This document shows positions 1,460 to 18,381 of a stretch of DNA of 19,619 nt, piece by piece. The notes under the pieces are model-generated. The model was not told where the DNA came from, did no database searches, and saw only the letters and a list, made by a program, of their open reading frames with translations. Origin of the DNA: Planctomycetales bacterium (lineage in GTDB: Bacteria > 4484-113); the NCBI GenBank assembly GCA_037445915.1, contig JBBIJQ010000035.1:1-19619 (forward strand), given 5' to 3'. Every line of letters starts with the position of its first letter. Position 1 is the first letter of the stretch. The translations under genes and the position numbers were made by a program.

Positions 1460-2545
1460 TTAGATGTAGAATTCCAGAGTCTCCTCTGGATGGTGGCCGA
1501 TGCGAACCTCAAGTTCCATGAAGCGGTCACGGCGAATCAGGCCGAAGACCATAATCTGGTCTTTCTTGGCGCCATAGACGATTTTCTCAAGCTGGCCGAT
1601 GCTTTTGAGGAGTGCGCCGTCAACCTTTACAACGAAGTCCTGGTAGCGCAAGCCGGCCTCATACGCGGGGCTTCCTTCCCAAACATCGTAGATGAGCATT
1701 CCCACGTCCCAATACTCGTCCGGAAGGTTCATGTACATCTTAAGGTCGTCTGTAACCTCACGGATGCCGCCCTGGGCGCTGAAGGAGCCTGAATAGGGCA
1801 TAACACCAAGCCAGGGGCGGAATGCCGGCTCGCGGGTAGATATTATCTGGTCACTAATGCGCTTCACAAGCGACGCCGGCATGAAGAAGTTTGTGTTCTG
1901 CATCCCCAGCGCGCGGCCGCCGCCAAACACGGCTTGGATGCCGATGACTTCGGAGTTGGCATTAAAGAGCGGGCTTCCCTCGTTGCCGGAGTTGATGACT
2001 ACGTCACTCTGTATCATATCGGGGACGAGCTGGCCGGAGCGAAGGCGCACGGTGCGGAGGGCGGAGACAATTCCGTATGAAACGGTATGGCCGTAGCCGC
2101 CTGCGGTGCCTACAACGACGACGGAGTCGCCCTGGCGGACCGGAGCTTTGGTAGCAAGCTTGGCGGGAGTCAGGTCTTTTGGCGGCTTCTTGAGTTTGAT
2201 AACGCCCAGCCCGTAGCCTTCGTCCTCCACTACGATTTCCGCAGGGAACTTCCGGCCGTCGGCAAGAGTGACTTCTAATTCCTGCGCATCAGTAAGCGCG
2301 CTGATATCGGTGAGGATATAGCCGCTCTTGTTGAGGATAAGGCCGGTTTTGTAACTCTGGACGATGCGCTGCTGGCGCGAGGTCAGCGAAACCGCGGCGA
2401 GCGAGAGGCTCACCGCCTCAATGGTCACCACGCTTTGCTTCGCCTGTTCCGCGACCTTAACGGCCACGAATTCGGCGCGCGCAGGCAAACAGACAGCCAA
2501 GGCTGCAAGCGCTAACACTGTGATAGAAGTCCACTTCAAGCGCAT
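1460..2545 (-). CDS. Exported HtrA/DegQ-fold trypsin-like domain plus PDZ protein, catalytically dead (pseudo-protease 2)
   Basis: Start placed at ATG 2545 (AGGAGA at 2551-2556) rather than GTG 2563. Signal peptide ends ...LPARA. HtrA scaffold present (GYILT, VTLADGRKF, TVSYGIVSA, IQSDVVIN, PWLG, GSPAYEAGL). Triad replaced: TNxH to TDIS, DLA to GLG, GNSGG to GNEGS. Confidence 0.88.
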   Translation of the reverse strand: MRLKWTSITVLALAALAVCLPARAEFVAVKVAEQAKQSVVTIEAVSLSLAAVSLTSRQQRIVQSYKTGLILNKSGYILTDISALTDAQELEVTLADGRKFPAEIVVEDEGYGLGVIKLKKPPKDLTPAKLATKAPVRQGDSVVVVGTAGGYGHTVSYGIVSALRTVRLRSGQLVPDMIQSDVVINSGNEGSPLFNANSEVIGIQAVFGGGRALGMQNTNFFMPASLVKRISDQIISTREPAFRPWLGVMPYSGSFSAQGGIREVTDDLKMYMNLPDEYWDVGMLIYDVWEGSPAYEAGLRYQDFVVKVDGALLKSIGQLEKIVYGAKKDQIMVFGLIRRDRFMELEVRIGHHPEETLEFYI

Positions 2546-2609
2546 AGCGTTCTCCTGTTTCACTCCGCCAGCCCGCGCGGGCTTAGCGGAGATTCTAACG
2601 TCCGAAGCC

Positions 2610-2804
2610 TTAAACCGAGAAGTTGATTACGTATCTCGGTTTCGGAACTGAATAAACCTTGACGGTAAAGATGCGGTTGCCGGGGCGCTTCACGTCAAAT
2701 ACGTATTCCTGGCCGATTTCGCCAAGAAGAACGTCGGAGCGGAAGTCTTCCGGGCGCGGGGGCGCCATCTCGTTGACGGTCAACAGCCGGTCGCCCTTGC
2801 GCAA
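2610..2804 (-). pseudogene. Out-of-frame C-terminal half of the PDZ domain of the active HtrA (continuation of 2780..3784)
   Basis: LRKGDRLLTVNEM...EIGQEYVFDVKRPGNRIFTVKV is the part of a PDZ domain that normally follows SPAxxAG. The upstream ORF breaks exactly at DSPAA (junction 2804/2805). Confidence 0.85.
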
Positions 2805-3784
2805 GCAGCAGGGGAATCGGGCTCTACATCAAAAACCCACAAGCCTTCCGGCCGCAAGCGCTCGCGAAACTCAACATAGCTTTCCCCGTTGCGGATGTTG
2901 GGCGGGAATATGCAATGCATACCGAGCCAAGGGATGTCCTGGCGCTTGTGCTCAAGCACTTCCACGACGAAGTTCTTGGGGAAGTTAATGGGAACAGCGG
3001 CGTTGCTTTGCTGCGAAAGTATCCAAGCGCCGCCCCAAGTGTTTATGCCGATGACTTCGCCGTGACGGTTGAAAAGCGGGCCGCCGGAGTTACCGCCGTT
3101 AATGGGGGTTTGAATGTTGAAGATATAGGGGAGGTTCATAGCGTAGCTAAGGCCGAACTGCCCGCTTTCGCTGTAGCGGTTGCGGTAGTTCCATGCAACC
3201 TGAAAGGATAAGTCGGTGTCGCGGCCCATGACGACGCGCATAGTCGCGGTTTGGCGCAGGCCCCAGAACTCCATCGGGTCGCTGCGGTCAATGTTCACGC
3301 CTTCGTCCGCGCCGGGCGAACCCATGGCCAACGCCAGGTCGCCGGGCTGGACCAAGTTGGAGTCGCCAAGTGTTACCGGAAACAGCTTGGCCGGGTCGGG
3401 ATCGTCAAGCACGAGCAGGGCGCAGTCGTAGTAAGGCGCAGCTGCGACCAGAGAAGCGCGCGCGCTGCTGCCGTCCCAGAAAATAATCTGGCAGACCGAC
3501 GCCTTGCCGGCGACGTGGGTGTTGGTGAGGATATGCCCCTGCTTGTCAATGACAAAGCCTGAGCCCAGCGACTGCAACTCTGCGGCAAACAGCGAAGTCA
3601 CGTCAATAGGGTGGACAACGACAACCCCACGGTGGACTTTCTCCACGAGGTCGGGCACGTTGATGGGGTTCTCGCGCAGGATGCGCTGGGTATCCCTGGG
3701 GGTAATCTCCGGCGCAGCGAACGCGCCGGTGAGTGCGGCGGATAGCGCCGCCAAAACGACAATCATAAACACCGTTGCTCTCAT
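2780..3784 (-). CDS. htrA: HtrA/DegQ-family serine protease with intact triad; frameshifted in the PDZ domain (full gene 2610..3784)
   Basis: ATG 3784 with GGAGGT about 10 nt upstream; signal peptide MRATVFMIVVLAALSAALTGAFA. Motifs LGSGFVID, ILTNTHV (His), YDCALL (Asp), INGGNSGGPL (Ser) and PDZ start PWLG...DSPAA. Confidence 0.9.
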   Translation of the reverse strand: MRATVFMIVVLAALSAALTGAFAAPEITPRDTQRILRENPINVPDLVEKVHRGVVVVHPIDVTSLFAAELQSLGSGFVIDKQGHILTNTHVAGKASVCQIIFWDGSSARASLVAAAPYYDCALLVLDDPDPAKLFPVTLGDSNLVQPGDLALAMGSPGADEGVNIDRSDPMEFWGLRQTATMRVVMGRDTDLSFQVAWNYRNRYSESGQFGLSYAMNLPYIFNIQTPINGGNSGGPLFNRHGEVIGINTWGGAWILSQQSNAAVPINFPKNFVVEVLEHKRQDIPWLGMHCIFPPNIRNGESYVEFRERLRPEGLWVFDVEPDSPAACARATGC

Positions 3785-3847
3785 TTTGTTACATACCTCC
3801 ACACTGCGCCACAGGGCTTGCCTGCGGCCCGAAACGGTTAGCGGCAC

Positions 3848-4963
3848 TTATTCGTCGTCTTCCTCTGGATACTCCAGTATTTGGACGACGGTCTCGTAAA
3901 TGTCGCCCCCCGTTGCCTTCGGGTCGGTGCTAATGCCCGGCGTAAACCGCCAGTAGCTGATAGTTACCAGATCGTTTATTTCAATGCGCCGGAAAAATGC
4001 GCTGTAATCAAACTGATACTTAATCTTGTTGCCGTCAAGCGAGACTATAAGGTCTCCCGCTTTCATGCCTGCGAGGTCGGCCGGGCTTCCCGGGTCAACA
4101 TAGGTAATGAACATTCCCGTCTCAATGCGGGCGGGTATTTCATTGAGCAGCCGGATCTGGTCGGTAAGGAGGATTGTTTCCGCGCCAAACCAGGGGCGCT
4201 TGGCCTTGCCCGCGATGATGCGGTCGGCAACCCTGACTACGTCGTTTATGGGCACCGCCAGGTTAATGTTGCTTTGGTTAAAGTCCAACACGGTGTCATA
4301 GACGATACCGACGACTTCCCCGTTCACGTTGGAGAGCGGGCCGCCCATCATCGCAAGCTGGTATGCCGCGTCAAACTGGATGTACTGCTCTGTCGGCTCT
4401 TCAACGCCCGGCAGCTCCTTGCGGATTGCGGAAATAACGCCCACGGTGCTGCTGTAGTCCTGGCCGCGTTCGCCGAAGCCTGTGATGCAGATTGGCTCGC
4501 CAAGCTTCAGGTGATCCGAGTTTGCCAGCGGGGCAGGAACCGGCTCGTACCTGTAGCCCCAGTTGACCTCAAGCACCGCCGTCTTGAAGACATCGTCGGT
4601 TCCGACTTTCTTAGCGGAAAACGACCTTCCGTCGGCGGTGATTACCCGGATATACTCCGCATGGGAGAGGATGAATGGGGTGGTAATCACGTATTTTGGA
4701 TCCTTGTAGATGAACCCGCAACCGTACAGGCCGTAGAGCGGCCGCGCACCGCGCATGTAGCTCCAGATTGCGTATTCAGTGTCGTTGCGCGGCTTGTCAA
4801 ACCGCGTCTCAATGAATACGACCGACGGCTTAAGCGACATTGCTGCTTGGTCGGAAGCGTAGTTAAGCTCCCAGCCCGGAGCAACCTGCGCGTTGGCGGT
4901 GTAGGCTATCGCCAGCGCAAACAGAAGCGAGCAAAGCCACGCCGCTTTGGAAAGTGGCCTCAT
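3848..4963 (-). CDS. Exported HtrA/DegQ-fold trypsin-like domain plus PDZ protein, catalytically dead (pseudo-protease 1)
   Basis: SD GAGGTGA; start is 18 nt after the proS stop. Signal peptide ends ...TANA. Scaffold GCGFI, TADGRSF, GVISA, YIQFDAA, GGPL, GEVVGI, PWFG, GSPADLAGMKAGD. Triad replaced: TNxH to TTPF, DLA to KTA, GNSGG to AMMGG. Confidence 0.88.
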   Translation of the reverse strand: MRPLSKAAWLCSLLFALAIAYTANAQVAPGWELNYASDQAAMSLKPSVVFIETRFDKPRNDTEYAIWSYMRGARPLYGLYGCGFIYKDPKYVITTPFILSHAEYIRVITADGRSFSAKKVGTDDVFKTAVLEVNWGYRYEPVPAPLANSDHLKLGEPICITGFGERGQDYSSTVGVISAIRKELPGVEEPTEQYIQFDAAYQLAMMGGPLSNVNGEVVGIVYDTVLDFNQSNINLAVPINDVVRVADRIIAGKAKRPWFGAETILLTDQIRLLNEIPARIETGMFITYVDPGSPADLAGMKAGDLIVSLDGNKIKYQFDYSAFFRRIEINDLVTISYWRFTPGISTDPKATGGDIYETVVQILEYPEEDDE

Positions 4964-13483: not shown

Positions 13484-13662
13484 GGGGAATGTTCCAAGCA
13501 CTCCAACAACGCCTGCACTTCATCCCGAAGCTTGCGCATCTTCTCCGCAACCTCCGGCGGAAGCTCAGGGGGAAGCTCGCCTTCCCACGCGCCGTGCAGT
13601 TCCTTCAGCGCGCTGACAATCTCTTCGCGGCTGAAATCTTTTGGCTGTTCAGGTTCGCTCAT
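13480..13662 (-). CDS. Small acidic helical protein (60 aa), unknown function
   Basis: ATG 13662 overlaps the asnS TGA (ATGA coupling). Sequence MSEPEQPKDFSREEIVSALKELHGAWEGELPPELPPEVAEKMRKLRDEVQALLECLEHSP looks like a helix-Pro linker-helix protein. Confidence 0.6.
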   Translation of the reverse strand: MSEPEQPKDFSREEIVSALKELHGAWEGELPPELPPEVAEKMRKLRDEVQALLECLEHSP

Positions 13663-14984
13663 GGCGAGAGGCGGTGCAGCATCCTCGGGAACGCGATGGT
13701 CTCGCGGATGTGCTGCACGCCGCAAAGCCATCCTAGCGTGCGCTCAAGGCCGATGCCGAAGCCCGAATGCGGCACGCTGCCGTATTTGCGCAGATCAAAA
13801 TACCAGCTAAACGCCTCCTCGGGCAGCCCGTGTTCCTGCACGCGCAGGCGCAGCGTCTCCAGGTCGTCCTCGCGCTGGCTGCCGCCGATGATTTCGCCGA
13901 CTCCCTCAGGCGCAAGCAGGTCCGAGCCGAGCACCGTCTCAGGGTCTTTCGGGTCGCGCTTCATGTAAAACGCCTTTATCTGCGCCGGAAAGTTGGTGAT
14001 GAACACCGGCAAGTCCGACTGCCCCGCAAGGAATGTTTCCTCCGGCGCGCCGAAGTCTTCACCGAAATCAAAGCGCGCCTCGCGCCCGGGCATATTTTCG
14101 TTGATGATTTTCACGGCGTCGCGGTAGTGGATGCGCGGGAAGCACCCGCCCTTGGCGCACGCCTCCACGATGTTCGCAAGCGGCGTTGTGTCGCGCTCAA
14201 GCGTGACAAGCTCGCCGGCGCAGTTCGCGAGCACGCGCCTAATCGTGTCAAGTATCATGTGCTCTTGCAGGCGCATGTTGTCTTCGTGCGTGAAATACGC
14301 GGCCTCGGCTTCCAGCATCCAGAACTCCAGCAAATGCCGCCGCGTCTTGCTCTTTTCTGCGCGGAAGGTTGGGCCGAAGCAATACACGCGCCCCAGCGCC
14401 ATCGCGTTCGCCTCGTTGTAGAGCTGGCCGCTTTGCGAGAGGTATGCCTTGTCGCCGTGGTAGTCAACTTCAAAAAGCGTGGTCGTGCCTTCAACCGCGT
14501 TGGGCGTGAAGATGGGCGTGTCCACGCGGATGAACCCGCGCTCGTAGAAGAAGTCAGCCCACGCCTTCTCAACCTCGTTGCGCACGCGCATTATCGCCGC
14601 CTGCTTGCGCGAGCGAAGCCAAAGGTGGCGGTTGTCCATCAGGAACTCTACGCCGTGGTCTTTCTTGGCGATTGGGTAGTCTTCAACAATTTGCAGCGCG
14701 TTCACGGCGCTGACCTGCATCTCCACGCCGCCTGGCGCGCGCGGCTCAAGGCGAAGTTCGCCCGTGATTTCAAGCGACGATTCTATGCCGAGCTTCGCGC
14801 ACTGCTCCATCGCCTCGGGCTGAAGGCTGCCGCCGAAGGCGACGCACTGCATTTCGCCGCTGCCGTCGCGCACGATGAGGAAGAAGATGTTCTTCCCGCT
14901 GCGTATGTTGCGCAGCCAGCCGCGCAGCCTCACGGTTTCGCCGGCGTGCTCCTTCGCGTCACATATTCGTATCGTCTCAATCAT
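13659..14984 (-). CDS. asnS: Asparagine--tRNA ligase
   Basis: OB fold (LRGW, RDGSG), YPIAKKDHG.EFLMDNRHLWLR, EGTTTLF, YLSQSGQLY, FGPTFRAEKSKTRRHL.EFWMLE, GEIIGGSQRE, WYFDLRKYGSVPHSGFGIGLER. Confidence 0.97.
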   Translation of the reverse strand: MIETIRICDAKEHAGETVRLRGWLRNIRSGKNIFFLIVRDGSGEMQCVAFGGSLQPEAMEQCAKLGIESSLEITGELRLEPRAPGGVEMQVSAVNALQIVEDYPIAKKDHGVEFLMDNRHLWLRSRKQAAIMRVRNEVEKAWADFFYERGFIRVDTPIFTPNAVEGTTTLFEVDYHGDKAYLSQSGQLYNEANAMALGRVYCFGPTFRAEKSKTRRHLLEFWMLEAEAAYFTHEDNMRLQEHMILDTIRRVLANCAGELVTLERDTTPLANIVEACAKGGCFPRIHYRDAVKIINENMPGREARFDFGEDFGAPEETFLAGQSDLPVFITNFPAQIKAFYMKRDPKDPETVLGSDLLAPEGVGEIIGGSQREDDLETLRLRVQEHGLPEEAFSWYFDLRKYGSVPHSGFGIGLERTLGWLCGVQHIRETIAFPRMLHRLSP

Positions 14985-15043
14985 ATTGCGCCCCTTGGCA
15001 CGCCTATTCTAACCCCTATCAGCGCGCGTGTGAAATCGCGCTT

Positions 15044-15189
15044 TGGAGTCTGGGCTCTGCTGAAGGGCGGGGACCTGTGCCCCGCCGCTCTTCTCCGAAA
15101 ACAAGACGGCGGCCCACGGGTGGCCGCCCTACAACCAGAATCCCATAGCCGGGCGAAAGTTCACCCGCCTTTGGAGGGACACGGCCTAC
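15044..15189. repeat. Nested REP/REPIN cluster (left-truncated) with a 20-nt mini-insertion
   Basis: tggagtctgggctctg linker; tgaagggcggggacctgtgccccgcc from 15061; inverted gacggcggcccacgggtggccgccctaca (15105-15133); inverted GTAG REP 15147-15189, interrupted at 15160-15179. Confidence 0.75.
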
Positions 15190-15289
15190 AGCTTTGGATT
15201 GTCTTGTTATATTTCCCCCTACACATCGCTAGAATCTATATGGGCGAGAGCTAACCCTCCGCCTACTTCGCGCCGGAGCACCCGCATAT

Positions 15290-16792
15290 ATGCCCGATTC
15301 CCCGCAAGCCGCAAGCGCCGGACTGCACGCGCCCGAGCTGCAAAAACTCTGGAACGGCAGCGTCGCAGCAAGCCTCACCAAGCCTGAATACTTCGCGCTG
15401 CTTGGCTACCGCCCACACGCAGGCCAGCGCCGCATCCACAACTCCAGCCGACGCTTCACCATCGCCGTGTGCGGCCGCCGCTGGGGCAAGACGCTCGCAG
15501 CCGCGCGCGAGGCAGGCTTTGCGGCGCTGAAGCCAGGCGCGCGCATCTTCGTCGTCGCGCCGTACCACGCCCTGTGCAGCCGCGTGTTTGAGCAGGTGTG
15601 GAACGACCTTGTCGTGGCGTTGCGCATGCCCGTCGCCGCAAAGAGCCGCAGTGACATGATGATTGAGCTGGCATGGGGCGCGCGCATTGAGGGCAAGACT
15701 GCCGAGCGCCCGGACGGCCTGGTCGGCGAAGGGCTTGACCTCGTGGTCTTTGACGAAGCAGCGAAGGCAAGGGCGGGCGTGTGGGAGCGCTACCTTGCGC
15801 CGTCGCTCATGGACAAGCGCGGCCGCGCGCTGTTCATAACCACGCCCGAGGGCATGAATTGGCTATACTCGCTGTTTATGCAGGGCAAGGACAGCGGCGA
15901 AAGCAACTGGCTTTGCTTCAACGCGCCGTCGCAGTCAAACCCGCACCTTCCCCGCGCCGAACTTAAGCTCATTACGCGCAATATGTCGCGCTTTCATAAG
16001 GCGCAGGAAATCGGCGCGGAGTTCACTCGCTGCGCCAACCTGGTCTATCCCGCGTTTTCCCACGCCGCGCACGTGCGCCCGCAAAGCTACGACCCGCGCC
16101 TGCCGCTTTACCGCGCCATTGACTTCGGCTACACAAACCCGTTTGCTTGCCTCACGCTGCAAGTTGCGCCGGGCGACGAGGTGCGCGTGCTTGACGAGAT
16201 ATACCAGCGCGGCGAGACGGTTCACGAAAATGCCCAGCGCATGCAGCAGTCGCTTGAGCCATACTTCGCGCGCTTCCGCGACTACTGGCTTCACGGCGGC
16301 CACATGCGCCAGCCTGTCTCTCCATCAACCAATAGCCAGTCACTTGCAACCATCCTCACCCATCCCCTCACCGGCGCTCCGCGCTTCCCGCAAAGCGTGG
16401 ATGAATTCGCGCAGTGCGTAATGCATTTTTGCGACCCCGCAGGCGCGGGCGAGCGTGCGCACCTGCGTAGCCTGGGGCTCATCGTGCAGGCGCGCCCTTC
16501 GCCGTTGTCCTACGGCATTGAGCTTGTCCGCAGCGCGCTGGAGGGAGACGGCGACGCCCCCAAGCTTTTCGTTGACCCACGCTGCGTGAACCTCATCCGC
16601 GAATTCGGAAGCTACCGCTACGCCGATTCAGGAGACTCATCCTTTTCCTCCTCCGCTTACCCCTTATCCGCCTGCGCCGAAGCTTCGGCGGACAAGTCCC
16701 TTACCTCTTACCCCTCTCTGGCTGAAGCTCCCCTCAAGGAGAACGACCACGCCCTTGACGCGCTGCGCTACTTCATGGGGAATATGTTTTGA
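15290..16792 (+). CDS. Phage terminase large subunit (Terminase_6-like ATPase plus RNase H-like nuclease), solitary
   Basis: Q motif YRPHAGQ, Walker A GRRWGKT, VVAP, Walker B LVVFDEAA, motif III FITTPEG, NPHL, nuclease acidic motifs AIDFG, DPAG and DHALDALRY. Confidence 0.9.
   Translation: MPDSPQAASAGLHAPELQKLWNGSVAASLTKPEYFALLGYRPHAGQRRIHNSSRRFTIAVCGRRWGKTLAAAREAGFAALKPGARIFVVAPYHALCSRVFEQVWNDLVVALRMPVAAKSRSDMMIELAWGARIEGKTAERPDGLVGEGLDLVVFDEAAKARAGVWERYLAPSLMDKRGRALFITTPEGMNWLYSLFMQGKDSGESNWLCFNAPSQSNPHLPRAELKLITRNMSRFHKAQEIGAEFTRCANLVYPAFSHAAHVRPQSYDPRLPLYRAIDFGYTNPFACLTLQVAPGDEVRVLDEIYQRGETVHENAQRMQQSLEPYFARFRDYWLHGGHMRQPVSPSTNSQSLATILTHPLTGAPRFPQSVDEFAQCVMHFCDPAGAGERAHLRSLGLIVQARPSPLSYGIELVRSALEGDGDAPKLFVDPRCVNLIREFGSYRYADSGDSSFSSSAYPLSACAEASADKSLTSYPSLAEAPLKENDHALDALRYFMGNMF
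16656..16713 (+). repeat. Heptamer array CTTA(C/T)C(C/T) x4 interrupted by a 30-nt palindromic mini-element, inside the terminase ORF
   Basis: cttaccc ctta[tccgcctgcgccgaagcttcggcggacaag]tcc cttacct cttaccc. Confidence 0.75.
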
Positions 16793-16820: not shown

Positions 16821-16992
16821 GTAGGCCGCACTTTAGTGCGGCTCCGGAGTCTGGAGTCTGGGCTCTGAACTGAAGGGCGGGGCTTTACGCCCCGCCGTCT
16901 GGAATTAACTGCAAGGCTAGCCACGGCGGGGGATAAACCCCCGCCCTTCAACCAGATTCCGGATACCAGAGCCGGGCTTAAGCCCGGCGTAC
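16821..16992. repeat. Complete nested REP/REPIN cluster
   Basis: gtaggccgcactttagtgcggctc (16821-16844), tgaagggcggggctttacgccccgccgtc (16871-16899), inverted acggcgggggataaacccccgcccttca (16923-16950) and inverted gagccgggcttaagcccggcgtac (16969-16992). Confidence 0.85.
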
Positions 16993-17082: not shown

Positions 17083-18381
17083 ATGGGGCGGAGAGTAATT
17101 ATTGCGCTGGCAGTCCTCACAATCGCAACGGCGGGATTCGCTGCGCTTGCGCTCATAAATGGAGCGACGGCTGAATACTACGGCGGCGGCGCGCCGGCGT
17201 CACCTGCGCAGCCCTCGGCGCCGGTGGCGTTGGACATGGAAGAAGCAGGCAGCGCGTTCGCTGCGGCGTCCAATGCGCTGGGGCTTGGCCTCCTGCGCGA
17301 GATGCGCAAGGGCGAAAAGGGCAACCTCGTGTTTTCGCCGCTGTCGGTGCAGCTTGCGCTTGGCATGACGCTAAACGGCGCGGATGGCGTGACGGCAGCA
17401 CAGATGCACGATGCGATGGCGCTTGGCGCGATGGACCTTGGCGATGCGAACATGTCTGCGCGCTGGCTCATAAACTCGCTGGCGGGCGCGGATGAAAGCG
17501 TGGAGATGTCGCTTGCCGACTCGCTTTGGCTTGAGCGCGGGCTTGCGCTAAATCCCGATTTCGTTGCTACATGCCGCGACTTCTACAGCGCGGAGGTTAC
17601 CGAGACCAACCTCACGAGCCGCTATGCGCTCAAGCAAATGGACGACTGGGTCAAGGCGAAGACCAACGGCCGCATAAAGTCCATCATTGACCCGCCGGTT
17701 GACGATGCGACCGCGCTCATCCTCCTCAACGCAGTGTATTTCAAAGCCGCATGGGACAAGCCATTTGACAAGGAAGACACGCGCGATGACGACTTCACGC
17801 TAGCAAGCGGCGAAACGATGCCAGTGAAGATGATGCGCCAACACGCAGGCTGGGAGTATCAGGAAAACGAGGCCTTCCAAGCGGCGCGGTTGAAATACGG
17901 CGATGAGGACAGGTTTGGAATGTGCGTGTTCCTGCCGCGTGAAGGCGTGGGGCTTGACACGATGCTTGATGCGCTCGCGAAGCGGGATTGGCAGGAGTGG
18001 ATAGAAGAGTTCTACTGGATGGAAGGCACAGTCGGCCTGCCTCGCTTCAAGGTGGAATTCGGCGCGAAGCTAAACGACCCGCTTAAGGCGCTGGGGATGC
18101 GCGATGCGTTCATGCCCGACAAGGCGCGGTTCACGAAAATGGTTAACGCACTTGAGCCGCTTTGCATAGGGCTTGTGATGCACAAGGCGTTCATTGAAGT
18201 GAACGAGGCGGGGACGGAAGCAGCCGCTGCAACAGCGGTACACGGCTGGGCGACAGCGGCGCCGGGCGAGGAGCCTAAGACCTTCTCGCTTATTGCGCGC
18301 CGCCCGTTCATGTATGCCATCACCGAAGCCGATACCGGCGCAATCATATTCCTCGGTGTCGTTGGGCGGCCGGAGGAATAA
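17083..18381 (+). CDS. Secreted serpin (serine protease inhibitor, MEROPS I4)
   Basis: SD AAGGAG; N-terminal signal/TM segment; NLVFSPLS, WVKAKTNGRI, LLNAVYFKAAW, LPRFK, hinge EVNEAGTEAAAAT, RPFMYAI and FLG. Confidence 0.95.
   Translation: MGRRVIIALAVLTIATAGFAALALINGATAEYYGGGAPASPAQPSAPVALDMEEAGSAFAAASNALGLGLLREMRKGEKGNLVFSPLSVQLALGMTLNGADGVTAAQMHDAMALGAMDLGDANMSARWLINSLAGADESVEMSLADSLWLERGLALNPDFVATCRDFYSAEVTETNLTSRYALKQMDDWVKAKTNGRIKSIIDPPVDDATALILLNAVYFKAAWDKPFDKEDTRDDDFTLASGETMPVKMMRQHAGWEYQENEAFQAARLKYGDEDRFGMCVFLPREGVGLDTMLDALAKRDWQEWIEEFYWMEGTVGLPRFKVEFGAKLNDPLKALGMRDAFMPDKARFTKMVNALEPLCIGLVMHKAFIEVNEAGTEAAAATAVHGWATAAPGEEPKTFSLIARRPFMYAITEADTGAIIFLGVVGRPEE

Follow-up and report, generated by a model that had tools for sequence, protein, structure and literature searches.

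An unlinked large terminase gene as the putative packaging enzyme of a gene transfer agent-like system in an uncultivated bacterial lineage

Known gene transfer agents (GTAs) are few, almost all of them described from Alphaproteobacteria, and new ones are hard to find because they resemble prophage debris (PMC12946183). The criteria given in PMC9662315 are caudovirus-like particle proteins, genes that are endogenised, often at several loci, and mostly inherited vertically, and particles that hold mostly random host DNA, have a head too small for their own genes and deliver the DNA to cells. RcGTA of Rhodobacter capsulatus (Rhodogtaviriformidae) is a domesticated head-tail system of several loci, and BhGTA, or VSH-1, of Brachyspira (Brachygtaviriformidae) has a putative large terminase (TerL) that is treated as part of a likely dispersed GTA 'genome'; GTA TerLs are described there as a host-specific, slowly evolving clade (PMC9662315). 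PBSX of Bacillus subtilis and FpGTA of Faecalibacterium are phage-derived clusters of ~10 kb that package host DNA (PMC12946183).

The gene studied here is a terL in a stretch of 19,619 nt (the window, in genome G000), and the best reading of its sequence is that it encodes the unlinked packaging enzyme of a putative GTA-like system in an uncultivated lineage. The system resembles RcGTA, as described in PMC9662315, in being multi-locus, vertically inherited, slow-evolving and devoid of replication and integration genes. However, terL of RcGTA (g2) sits inside the main head-tail cluster of an alphaproteobacterium, whereas the terL studied here belongs to an uncultivated group and stands apart from the portal gene in 12/12 genomes. 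With BhGTA/VSH-1, an independent lineage whose TerL assignment is putative and with which we compare by published description, it has in common a terL within a dispersed system; in contrast to that case, the window terL is tied to a structural cluster on another contig (C10) by co-distribution and a common promoter. PBSX and FpGTA are, like the C10 cluster, compact and outside Alphaproteobacteria, but FpGTA I is described as one 10.5-kb operon with terS and terL beside the portal gene (PMC12946183), while here the terminase has a separate locus.

The open reading frame at 15290-16792 runs uninterrupted for 500 aa and is a real gene for an intact TerL. Its product matches Pfam Terminase_6N (PF03237) with 27.4 bits against a cut-off of 22, PHROG family phrog_2 (terminase large subunit) at 4e-35 over residues 40-496, and the ATPase domain of P74-26 TerL at 6e-26 over residues 30-218; NCBIfam had no match for it and none for the C10 portal protein. 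The AlphaFold model (mean pLDDT 86.8) found as its best Foldseek matches the full-length TerLs of D6E (1.6e-20), T4 (gp17), Sf6 (gp2) and HK97, with TM 0.75-0.77 on the ATPase domain, and the nuclease part also matched the nuclease domains of P22 and SPP1. The features of the gene are as follows, with invariance judged in a 49-sequence alignment.

15290 to 16792, plus strand: terL, large terminase homologue of 500 aa (HMM, sequence and fold matches)
15377 to 16039, plus strand: ATPase domain, about residues 30-250 (P74-26 alignment, Foldseek)
15473 to 15493, plus strand: Walker A, G62-T68 (G62, R64, G66 and K67 invariant)
15752 to 15757, plus strand: Walker B acidic pair D155-E156 (E156 invariant)
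15839 to 15853, plus strand: coupling motif C, T184-G188 (P186 invariant, T185 and G188 nearly so)
16055 to 16789, plus strand: RNase H-like nuclease domain, about residues 256-500 (acidic D278, D382 and D490 invariant)
16253 to 16417, plus strand: insertion 1 in the nuclease domain, about residues 322-376 (alignment against phage homologues)
16625 to 16729, plus strand: insertion 2, a low-complexity loop, about residues 446-480 (alignment, pLDDT)

The N-terminus is an ASCE ATPase with Walker A, Walker B and coupling motif, and the C-terminus an RNase H-like nuclease with three acidic residues; with matches spanning both domains and the catalytic residues conserved, the large terminase is intact, as the initial annotation had proposed from the sequence alone. 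The fold and catalytic residues are those of the TerLs of P74-26, D6E, T4 (gp17), Sf6 (gp2) and HK97, but identity to these is ~30% at best, none of them has the two nuclease-domain insertions, and the window terL has no adjoining portal gene. The possibility, raised in the initial annotation, that the closest matches lie in intact prophages was not borne out: the nearest phage or viral-contig relatives are only 31-34% identical. The gene is single copy in its genome. Five genomes were searched, and in each phrog_2 had one strong match, this TerL; TerL_ATPase (PF03354) and Terminase_3 (PF04466) detected no terminase in any of them (0/5 for each).

Both in-frame insertions are real relative to phage homologues. 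Insertion 1, whose residue numbers were counted by hand backwards from D382, occurs in the window's family (f1) and, with a different sequence, in family f3; neither phage homologues nor the nearest metagenomic sister group have it. It is partly of low pLDDT (349-356) and holds a 12-residue motif, T357-Q368 (nt 16358-16393), common to the four f1 sequences displayed. Insertion 2 has pLDDT <50 at 449-473 and varies in length: one public run has a 30-nt in-frame deletion at 16667, and a protein 97% identical to TerL is 10 aa shorter. Loss of the arginine finger was considered as a sign of domestication and rejected: the position aligned to R139 of P74-26 is V145, which is no mark of domestication because a true phage relative (L073) has V or L there.

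The surroundings of terL are those of a host chromosome.

13659 to 14984, minus strand: asnS, divergent housekeeping neighbour outside the system (Pfam tRNA-synt_2, 2.9e-70)
15040 to 15160, no strand assigned: REP-like hairpin repeats upstream of terL, of a dispersed hairpin family
15275 to 15278, plus strand: Shine-Dalgarno-like tetramer 11 nt before the ATG of terL (read from the sequence)
16848 to 16990, no strand assigned: REP-like hairpin repeats downstream of terL, of a dispersed hairpin family, where public-run contigs break
17083 to 18381, plus strand: serpin, downstream neighbour outside the system (Pfam Serpin, 8e-101)

These neighbours and repeats had been named correctly in the initial annotation, as had the position of the Shine-Dalgarno-like tetramer. 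Its statement that the window holds no other phage gene agrees with a Pfam scan of 16 window ORFs, which gave no phage-related match besides terL, and there is indeed no room for a small terminase upstream, the only plus-strand ORF wholly within 14985-15289 being one of 23 aa. Composition is host-like, with a terL GC1/2/3 of 0.65/0.49/0.77 resembling that of adjacent genes, and TCGA, reported to be missing from terL, is absent from the ORF, occurs once in the window and is avoided genome-wide (observed/expected 0.12); the avoidance and the host-like composition hold at both the terL and C10 loci, which points to amelioration. The flanking repeats belong to the hairpin family with matches on >20 contigs and were therefore rejected as att sites; one 16-mer was found solely at the two terL flanks. 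A chimeric assembly at these repeats had been raised as a concern. Public-run contigs stop there and neither bridge nor contradict the junctions, and the asnS-terL-serpin neighbourhood recurs on an independent 76-kb contig from a congener. All Rfam matches were below the gathering score. PKD-domain proteins near terL in relatives were considered and rejected, having dozens of paralogues per genome.

The description of terL as an orphan holds among the genes of the window but not for the genome, where a search for portal, capsid and tail genes found them clustered on contig C10, away from terL. At about 13.1-22.9 kb, C10 carries a 9.8-kb phage-gene cluster, on one strand throughout, bordered by host genes and without a terminase. 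It encodes an SPP1-type portal (PF05133, 54 bits against a cut-off of 25.5; phrog_64), a major capsid protein (phrog_212, 6e-80; NCBIfam MCP, 245 bits against a cut-off of 75), a tail tube (phrog_807), proteins of 637 and 265 aa without known family, small ORFs and an Amidase_2 protein; NCBIfam placed capsid and tail tube in generic phage families only. The tail-tube match suggests a siphovirus-like particle. No prohead protease or scaffold was recognised in the cluster, which has an unannotated ORF of 94 aa between portal and capsid. Together the two unlinked loci sum to at least 11 kb, and the likeness to caudovirus particle proteins is one of homology (portal, capsid, tail tube, amidase and TerL). 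A tblastn search of the genome with 30 phage-module proteins recovered the 637-aa protein of the tail region and a weak HTH match, and nothing else. Other portal and capsid families were searched for with PF04860 (2/41 genomes), PF05065 (2/41), phrog_113 (12/41) and phrog_1005 (2/41), none of which matched in f1, and with phrog_12 (0/5 genomes) and PF06074 (0/5, its control likewise without any match).

Integrase, lysogeny and replication genes were found neither in the window (Pfam) nor around the C10 cluster, and the contiguous terS-terL-portal-head order that would go with such genes in an intact or recent prophage is not present. The positive controls, a prophage of a relative (L029) and a viral contig (L073), do have terL adjoining the portal gene. 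A set of portal, capsid, tail and amidase genes without replication or integration genes fits a PBSX-like element as well as a GTA, and PBSX itself, which packages chromosomal fragments of 13.4 kb, is classed as GTA-like (PMC12946183). A real particle system that uses TerL might, without being a GTA, serve as a PBSX-like killer particle of the defective-phage type, or as a device for lysis and DNA release in competition or in a biofilm matrix. We regard this as unlikely, yet nothing specific speaks against it: receptor-binding or immunity genes of the bacteriocin type were not recognised, though most tail genes have no family match, and from sequence alone the two readings are indistinguishable.

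The same families carry TerL and the portal and capsid genes. TerL orthologues were found in 6/8 genomes of f1, 4/4 of f3, 1/1 of f4 and 0/10 of the sister family f2, which rules out presence in a single strain, and portal and capsid were each found in 14/41 genomes (8/8, 4/4, 1/1 and 0/10 in f1, f3, f4 and f2, and 0/17 in other families). TerL was not found in two cluster-bearing f1 genomes, G002 (93% complete) and G003 (77%), and in G006 it was seen only as a C-terminal fragment at a contig end. Wherever both were located, TerL and portal lie on different contigs (12/12 genomes); all genomes except one are drafts, and physical distances are therefore lower bounds. The terL locus is syntenic within the genus, the C10 cluster with its host flanks is syntenic in five other f1 genomes (G001, G005, G008, G002 and G004), and the core gene order of the cluster is kept in f3 and f4. 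The genes are thus endogenised at more than one locus, and the cluster has a fixed host position in the f1 genomes compared. In f1 a gene for an ECF sigma factor is conserved next to the cluster and is a candidate regulator.

A rare composite promoter-like element is common to terL and the portal cluster.

15204 to 15246, plus strand: composite promoter-like element before terL, with the same boxes and spacing at C10
15204 to 15213, plus strand: its 10-nt upstream box
15228 to 15235, plus strand: its 8-nt -10-like box, which includes the -10-like hexamer at 15230-15235
15240 to 15246, plus strand: its 7-nt downstream box

The hexamer was correctly placed in the initial annotation. The same three boxes precede the portal cluster at C10:13031-13072 with the same spacing. 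Patterns built on these two loci were counted genome-wide: two strict patterns matched only these two sites in the 1.79 Mb of the window's genome, and a relaxed pattern matched five sites there, against none for the reversed pattern and none in each of five simulated genomes. Since the patterns were derived first and counted after, the genome-wide rarity is a fair test, the choice of pattern being post hoc. In G001 there were two matches, both at the terL and portal loci, and controls gave none. Other lineages have other elements: G005 has a different 20-nt box, which lies ahead of the terL operon and the portal cluster and also of two paralogous genes from a single family, and in f3 a third motif matches only the portal and terS-terL loci (2/2 in G023 and 2/2 in G019), while the search with this motif in G022 matched neither locus, and the portal-side box of G008 has >1 mismatch. 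A sigma-70 scan, by its own criteria, gave no plus-strand promoter ahead of terL and one promoter-like site on the minus strand on the asnS side (15034-15006).

These results bear on whether TerL acts without capsids, as a defence nuclease-ATPase, a decoy against phage packaging or an enzyme of host DNA metabolism, with the insertion marking its new role. Such repurposing would fit a terL that lies away from structural genes in all genomes, an insertion 1 limited to the domesticated clades and a dN/dS above that of the structural genes. On the other hand, the distribution of TerL tracks the portal-capsid cluster by family, the promoter is common with a cluster that has no other terminase, PADLOC-DB gave no defence family for TerL and three neighbours, and no conserved defence genes lie beside terL across genera; we consider repurposing quite improbable. 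Of the three options in the initial annotation, nothing specific supports the decoy and the repurposed enzyme, whereas the dispersed GTA-like packaging system gains support because of the terminase-less C10 cluster, the family-matched distribution and the common promoter.

TerL and the cluster are vertically inherited and under purifying selection. In the TerL tree the 14 f1 sequences form one clade (support 99), sister (96) to six sequences, three f3 TerLs and three unnamed metagenomic proteins, and this f1/f3 clade stands apart from 12 viral-contig TerLs. TerL clades match genus and family, and the TerL and GyrB trees have their main splits in common, with differences only at weakly supported nodes. 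TerL dS (0.394) is close to that of asnS (0.392), as expected with mostly vertical inheritance and host co-diversification. TerL dN/dS ranges from 0.09 to 0.27 overall and from 0.09 to 0.12 within genus g5; between G000 and G001 it is 0.27 for TerL, 0.10 for portal, 0.04 for capsid, 0.11 for tail tube and 0.14 for the 637-aa protein, so that constraint is weaker on TerL than on the structural genes (0.04-0.14). The capsid of Paenibacillus phages is ~51% identical to that of C10, and since this family evolves slowly in phages too, high capsid identity alone is weak evidence; one close capsid homologue bears the NCBI label 'Riflebacteria'. Orthologues, synteny, a clade of its own, the GyrB-like topology and low dN/dS together bear out the earlier proposal of a long-resident domesticated gene.

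Old prophage leftovers in slow, functionless decay would also be scattered, as terL and the C10 cluster are, and would lack an integrase, replication genes and, in f1, a recognisable protease and terS; that TerL was not found in 2/8 f1 genomes would fit as well. Yet every reading frame stays open across genomes that share only 60-78% GyrB identity, dN/dS is 0.04-0.27 with invariant catalytic residues, and lineage-specific promoters are matched between the loci in g1, in f3 and in g5 (on G005). Decay is thus very improbable and, of the readings weighed here, the least probable.

We therefore favour, with a probability of roughly 0.7, a TerL that is predicted to drive packaging and cut DNA for a GTA-type particle system, one that is domesticated, fixed in the chromosome and split over several loci. 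On induction, the terL and C10 loci would be transcribed together and the portal and capsid proteins would build procapsids. TerL would dock on the portal, its nuclease domain cutting DNA and its ATPase domain pumping DNA in; the DNA would probably be that of the host, packaged in a headful mode. Tails would then attach, and the amidase would lyse the cell and release the particles. A wider and more tentative reading, to which we give slightly less than an even chance as a whole, is an independently domesticated GTA (viriform) lineage across a class of uncultivated bacteria. Its 'genome' may have been split before the families diverged, into terL (with terS in f3) and portal-to-lysis loci, and the pieces may be tied only by a dedicated promoter that varies between lineages yet is matched between loci. 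The terminase may have gained its clade-specific nuclease-domain insertion in this lineage, and f2 may have a different head module, contiguous and no less conserved, in which case two domesticated particle systems would have replaced one another within the order.

If so, a terL that resembles debris would belong to a system maintained throughout a class. A full-text literature search found no publications joining 'Riflebacteria' and 'gene transfer agent'. The route taken here, from a solitary hallmark gene to a genome search for partners, their distributions in relatives and promoters, is reusable, and the matched lineage-specific promoters offer a testable regulon, with terL, the C10 cluster, a multi-copy family gene and a DUF6642 gene as candidate members, and a handle on its regulator. 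An always-unlinked terminase with a clade-specific nuclease insertion is well suited to studying how domestication abolishes packaging specificity. If functional, the system would be a gene-exchange route in a poorly known subsurface or wastewater lineage (habitat from run labels only).

For the small terminase, the HTH protein found upstream of terL in f3 has matches in 0/8 f1 genomes. A second candidate belongs to a multi-copy family without Pfam match (G000:C71:4092-4847). Its hhalign probability against the f3 upstream proteins is 0.2%, its AlphaFold model is poor (pLDDT 53, pTM 0.24) and all-helical, and a protein atlas gave scores of 0.80-0.85 only, among them a Terminase_5 cluster at 0.80. 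In genus g5, a member of this family overlaps the start of terL and has the same promoter.

The open frame at window positions 15290-16792 (+), terL, encodes a large terminase of 500 residues that is intact, as the initial annotation had claimed. The protein scores 27.4 bits with Pfam Terminase_6N (cut-off 22) and also matches PHROG family phrog_2 ('terminase large subunit'; 4e-35, residues 40-496) and the structurally solved ATPase domain of the terminase from Thermus phage P74-26 (6e-26), and the top Foldseek matches of its AlphaFold model (mean pLDDT 86.8, from an input alignment of 49 sequences) are the full-length large terminases D6E (1.6e-20), T4 gp17, Sf6 gp2 and HK97. The catalytic columns are invariant, and both proposed frame-keeping insertions are present.

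Motifs and insertions of TerL (some residue ranges counted by hand)
Walker A: invariant columns include G62, R64, G66 and K67
Walker B: E156 invariant
Motif C: P186 invariant
Nuclease acidic residues: D278, D382 and D490 invariant
Insertion 1: about residues 322-376, in-frame relative to phage homologues
Insertion 2: about residues 446-480, in-frame relative to phage homologues

Insertion 1 is confined to the clades of the window's family (f1) and of family f3, and 12 residues of its f1 version form a conserved motif. The low-complexity loop of insertion 2 differs in length even among strains and tolerates such change. One public run and a 97%-identical database protein have a 30-nt in-frame deletion within it, at window position 16667. 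The valine (V145) aligned to R139 of the P74-26 enzyme is uninformative, since a true phage relative likewise has V there.

The neighbors of terL are ordinary genes: the window otherwise holds asnS, an ABC transporter pair, gyrB, proS, three HtrA-like proteases, a radical-SAM protein and a serpin, and no open reading frame for a small terminase fits upstream of terL. The hairpin repeats on both sides belong to a genome-wide family, and the codon-position GC of terL is host-like. TCGA is indeed lacking in the open reading frame, and it is avoided across the whole genome (observed/expected 0.12). Other palindromic tetramers are likewise strongly avoided (observed/expected 0.25 for GTAC, 0.26 for GATC and 0.38 for CTAG), and this avoidance suggests restriction-modification pressure. 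The three trypsin-like/HtrA-type protease genes are consecutive (1460-4963 (-)), two of them with PDZ domains, and share the window with a full-length bacterial serpin (17083-18381 (+)).

The window is the entire contig C35 of a 1.79-Mb draft genome (G000, 90% complete), in which terL is single-copy. We searched 40 genomes of relatives for TerL.

TerL matches by family
f1 (the window's family): 6/8 genomes
f3: 4/4 genomes
f4: 1/1 genome
f2 (sister family): 0/10 genomes
f15 and f16: weak matches, about 30% identity

TerL was not found in two genomes, G002 (93% complete) and G003 (77%), and in G006 we found a C-terminal piece alone, at a contig end. Identity to the window protein declines with host distance, from 83% in the same genus to 60 to 67% in other f1 genera and 40 to 46% in f3 and f4, and GyrB declines in the same order (95%, 73 to 78% and 60 to 63%). 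A tree of 78 rows places the 14 f1 sequences in a single clade (support 99), whose sister (support 96) is a six-row clade of the three f3 proteins plus three unnamed metagenomic ones. The 12 terminases from viral contigs all fall elsewhere, the f4 sequence is an unplaced long branch, and the f15 and f16 matches, the latter adjoining a phrog_113 portal, are long branches outside the clade. For the same genomes, the TerL and GyrB trees have their main splits in common and disagree only at weakly supported nodes. A gene restricted to this strain, with its closest hits in prophages, is not what we find: the nearest phage records are 31% identical (1,227 records, each <60%) and the nearest viral contig is 34% identical. 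A 76-kb contig of a congener, G001, has the same asnS-terL-serpin order, and non-phage genes surround terL in the other relatives as well. These comparisons argue that terL is old and vertically inherited, in line with the long-resident domesticated gene first proposed.

The particle genes that a solitary terminase might serve were found in the same genome. In f1, neither the portal and capsid families of HK97 type nor those adjoining TerL in its nearest viral relative had a match. The SPP1-type portal family matched 4 of 5 f1 genomes, each above the curated cut-off; in G000 the match lies on contig C10, as the first gene of a compact cluster that spans about 9.8 kb, with all genes on one strand.

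Genes of the C10 cluster, in order
Portal, 455 aa
Unannotated open reading frame, 94 aa
Major capsid protein, 303 aa (phrog_212, 6e-80; NCBIfam, 245 bits against a cut-off of 75)
Small open reading frames, between capsid and tail tube
Tail tube (phrog_807)
Proteins of 150, 637 and 265 aa without a known family
Two small open reading frames, before the endolysin
Amidase_2 endolysin, the last listed gene

Upstream lie an ECF sigma factor with its anti-sigma factor, a Ser/Thr kinase and a response regulator, and downstream a PHP protein and the CCA-adding enzyme. This head-tail-lysis cluster contains no terminase, integrase or replication gene, and terL is the sole strong terminase match in G000, with likewise one in each of four other genomes searched.

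The cluster and terL have a matched distribution. Matches to the portal and to the capsid are each present in 14 of 41 genomes (f1, 8/8; f3, 4/4; f4, 1/1), with none in f2 (0/10) or the remaining families (0/17), and these are the same families as for TerL. The two loci are on separate contigs in all 12 genomes in which both were located, all but one of the genomes compared being drafts, and positions within long contigs of G005, G023 and G001 place them at least tens of kilobases apart. For a less likely rival explanation, a repurposed enzyme that acts independently of any capsid, the separation speaks in favor and the co-occurrence against. The chromosomal position is fixed: the whole cluster with its host flanks is syntenic in five further f1 genomes, and f3 and f4 keep the core order (portal, capsid, 194-aa protein, tube, 150-aa and 637-aa proteins) with different flanks. 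Composition is host-like in GC, with a single TCGA in 9.8 kb. Capsid identity (98% in the congener, 79 to 84% in f1, 67 to 70% in f3, 62% in f4, and 75% over half the length in G004) is supportive only, because phage members of this capsid family already show about 51% identity.

Against the rival view that these genes are functionless remnants, the substitution rates show purifying selection at both loci. Between G000 and G001, dN/dS is 0.27 for TerL, 0.10 for the portal, 0.04 for the capsid, 0.11 for the tube and 0.14 for the 637-aa protein, and within genus g5 of f1 it is 0.09 to 0.12 for TerL; the dS of TerL (0.394) is close to that of asnS (0.392).

Matched promoters link the two loci further. 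In G000, terL and the portal share a three-box element that lies about 80 to 86 nt ahead of their start codons, and its middle box contains the -10-like hexamer noted in the initial annotation.

Promoter-like element before terL (window positions)
15204-15213: upstream box, 10 nt
15228-15235: -10-like box, 8 nt, 13-14 nt downstream of the 10-nt box
15240-15246: downstream box, 7 nt, 4 nt beyond the -10-like box

The patterns were drawn from both loci and then counted genome-wide, so that their choice was post hoc; each of two strict patterns matches exactly the terL and portal sites in the 1.79 Mb. A relaxed pattern finds five sites, before terL, the portal, a DUF6642 gene (C37), a multi-copy family gene (C71) and a near-identical copy (end of C96), and had no match when reversed or in five Markov-simulated genomes. 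In G001 the pattern matches twice, at terL and the portal. In g5 the upstream box differs: G005 has a 20-nt box four times (before the operon ending in terL, the portal and two further multi-copy family paralogues), G008 has it before the terL operon and, with more than one mismatch, before the portal, and G007 has no match of the g5 box. A third motif in f3 occurs twice each in G023 and G019, before the portal and before a small-gene-plus-terL operon, and four times in G021, both loci included; in G022 it is at neither locus, both being close to contig ends. Given how rare the patterns are, the outcome of the controls and the recurrence in separate lineages, chance is an unlikely cause of the match, and the shared element appears to tie the terL and portal loci together. 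The DUF6642 gene behind a relaxed copy (G000:C37:1871-2629, L206:1501-2259; 200 aa, Pfam 1e-17) may be a further regulon member.

A small subunit is suggested in f3: in G021, G019 and G022 the gene immediately before terL encodes a protein of about 200 aa that matches HTH_23, and in G023 that position is taken by a weakly similar protein of 131 aa; the HTH protein and terL look like a terS-terL pair. We found no homologue of the HTH protein in f1 (0/8). In g5 a member of the multi-copy family overlaps the start of terL; members of this family carry the lineage-specific promoter common to terL and the portal cluster. The family evolves fast and matches no Pfam entry; its proteins combine two conserved blocks of helices with linkers of low complexity. 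G000 carries one full copy (G000:C71:4092-4847, L162), G001 three copies, G005 five and G008 three (paralogues L164, L169, L171, L173, L174 and L201). Its members are at most candidates for a small terminase. Two small genes downstream of terL in g5 (L022:7426-7938 and L023:9441-9761) are HicB-antitoxin-like by eye; their proteins match no family and are only 29% identical across 70 residues.

In a dispersed packaging system, the likeliest of the readings, the terL locus and the C10 cluster would be co-expressed, procapsids would assemble, TerL would dock on the portal, cut DNA and package it by the headful, tails would attach, and the amidase would drive lysis. PMC9662315 gives six criteria for gene transfer agents (GTAs), and three describe what we find: phage-like particle genes, endogenization in several loci and vertical co-diversification. 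The others are experimental (random host DNA in particles, a head below element size and recipient delivery), and a PBSX-like particle without transfer is a rival explanation. According to that source, RcGTA has five loci but keeps terL in its main cluster, and a putative TerL and a dispersed 'genome' have been proposed for BhGTA; here terL is apart from the portal. Very few GTA-like elements are known outside Alphaproteobacteria, according to PMC12946183. We found no GTA literature on this lineage and none joining 'Riflebacteria' with 'gene transfer agent', the lineage name being uncertain since NCBI homologue labels disagree.

Other terminases occur among the relatives. The f2 genomes, which are without this TerL, portal and capsid, have a phrog_113 portal in 10 of 10 (L159 at G011:C1:1358000-1377999, also L160 and L161). 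The contiguous module of G011 comprises an HTH protein, a 204-aa protein, a phrog_38 TerL of another type, portal, protease, phrog_371 major head protein and adaptor; its gene-length order is repeated in two other genera, and the 663-aa product of its last gene shares 29% identity with the 637-aa protein encoded in the G000 cluster. The module may represent a further, distinct domesticated particle system. A 32%-identical TerL in a genome labelled Planctomycetota (L039:7869-9209), with no adjoining portal and an EF-G-like gene among its neighbors, may be another detached terminase. G021 has, besides its TerL of the clade, a second one (35% identical) that belongs to the head module of an ordinary prophage, together with a portal, protease, capsid and adaptor (L029, G021:C48:1-17000), and domesticated and phage-borne terminases therefore coexist in one genome.
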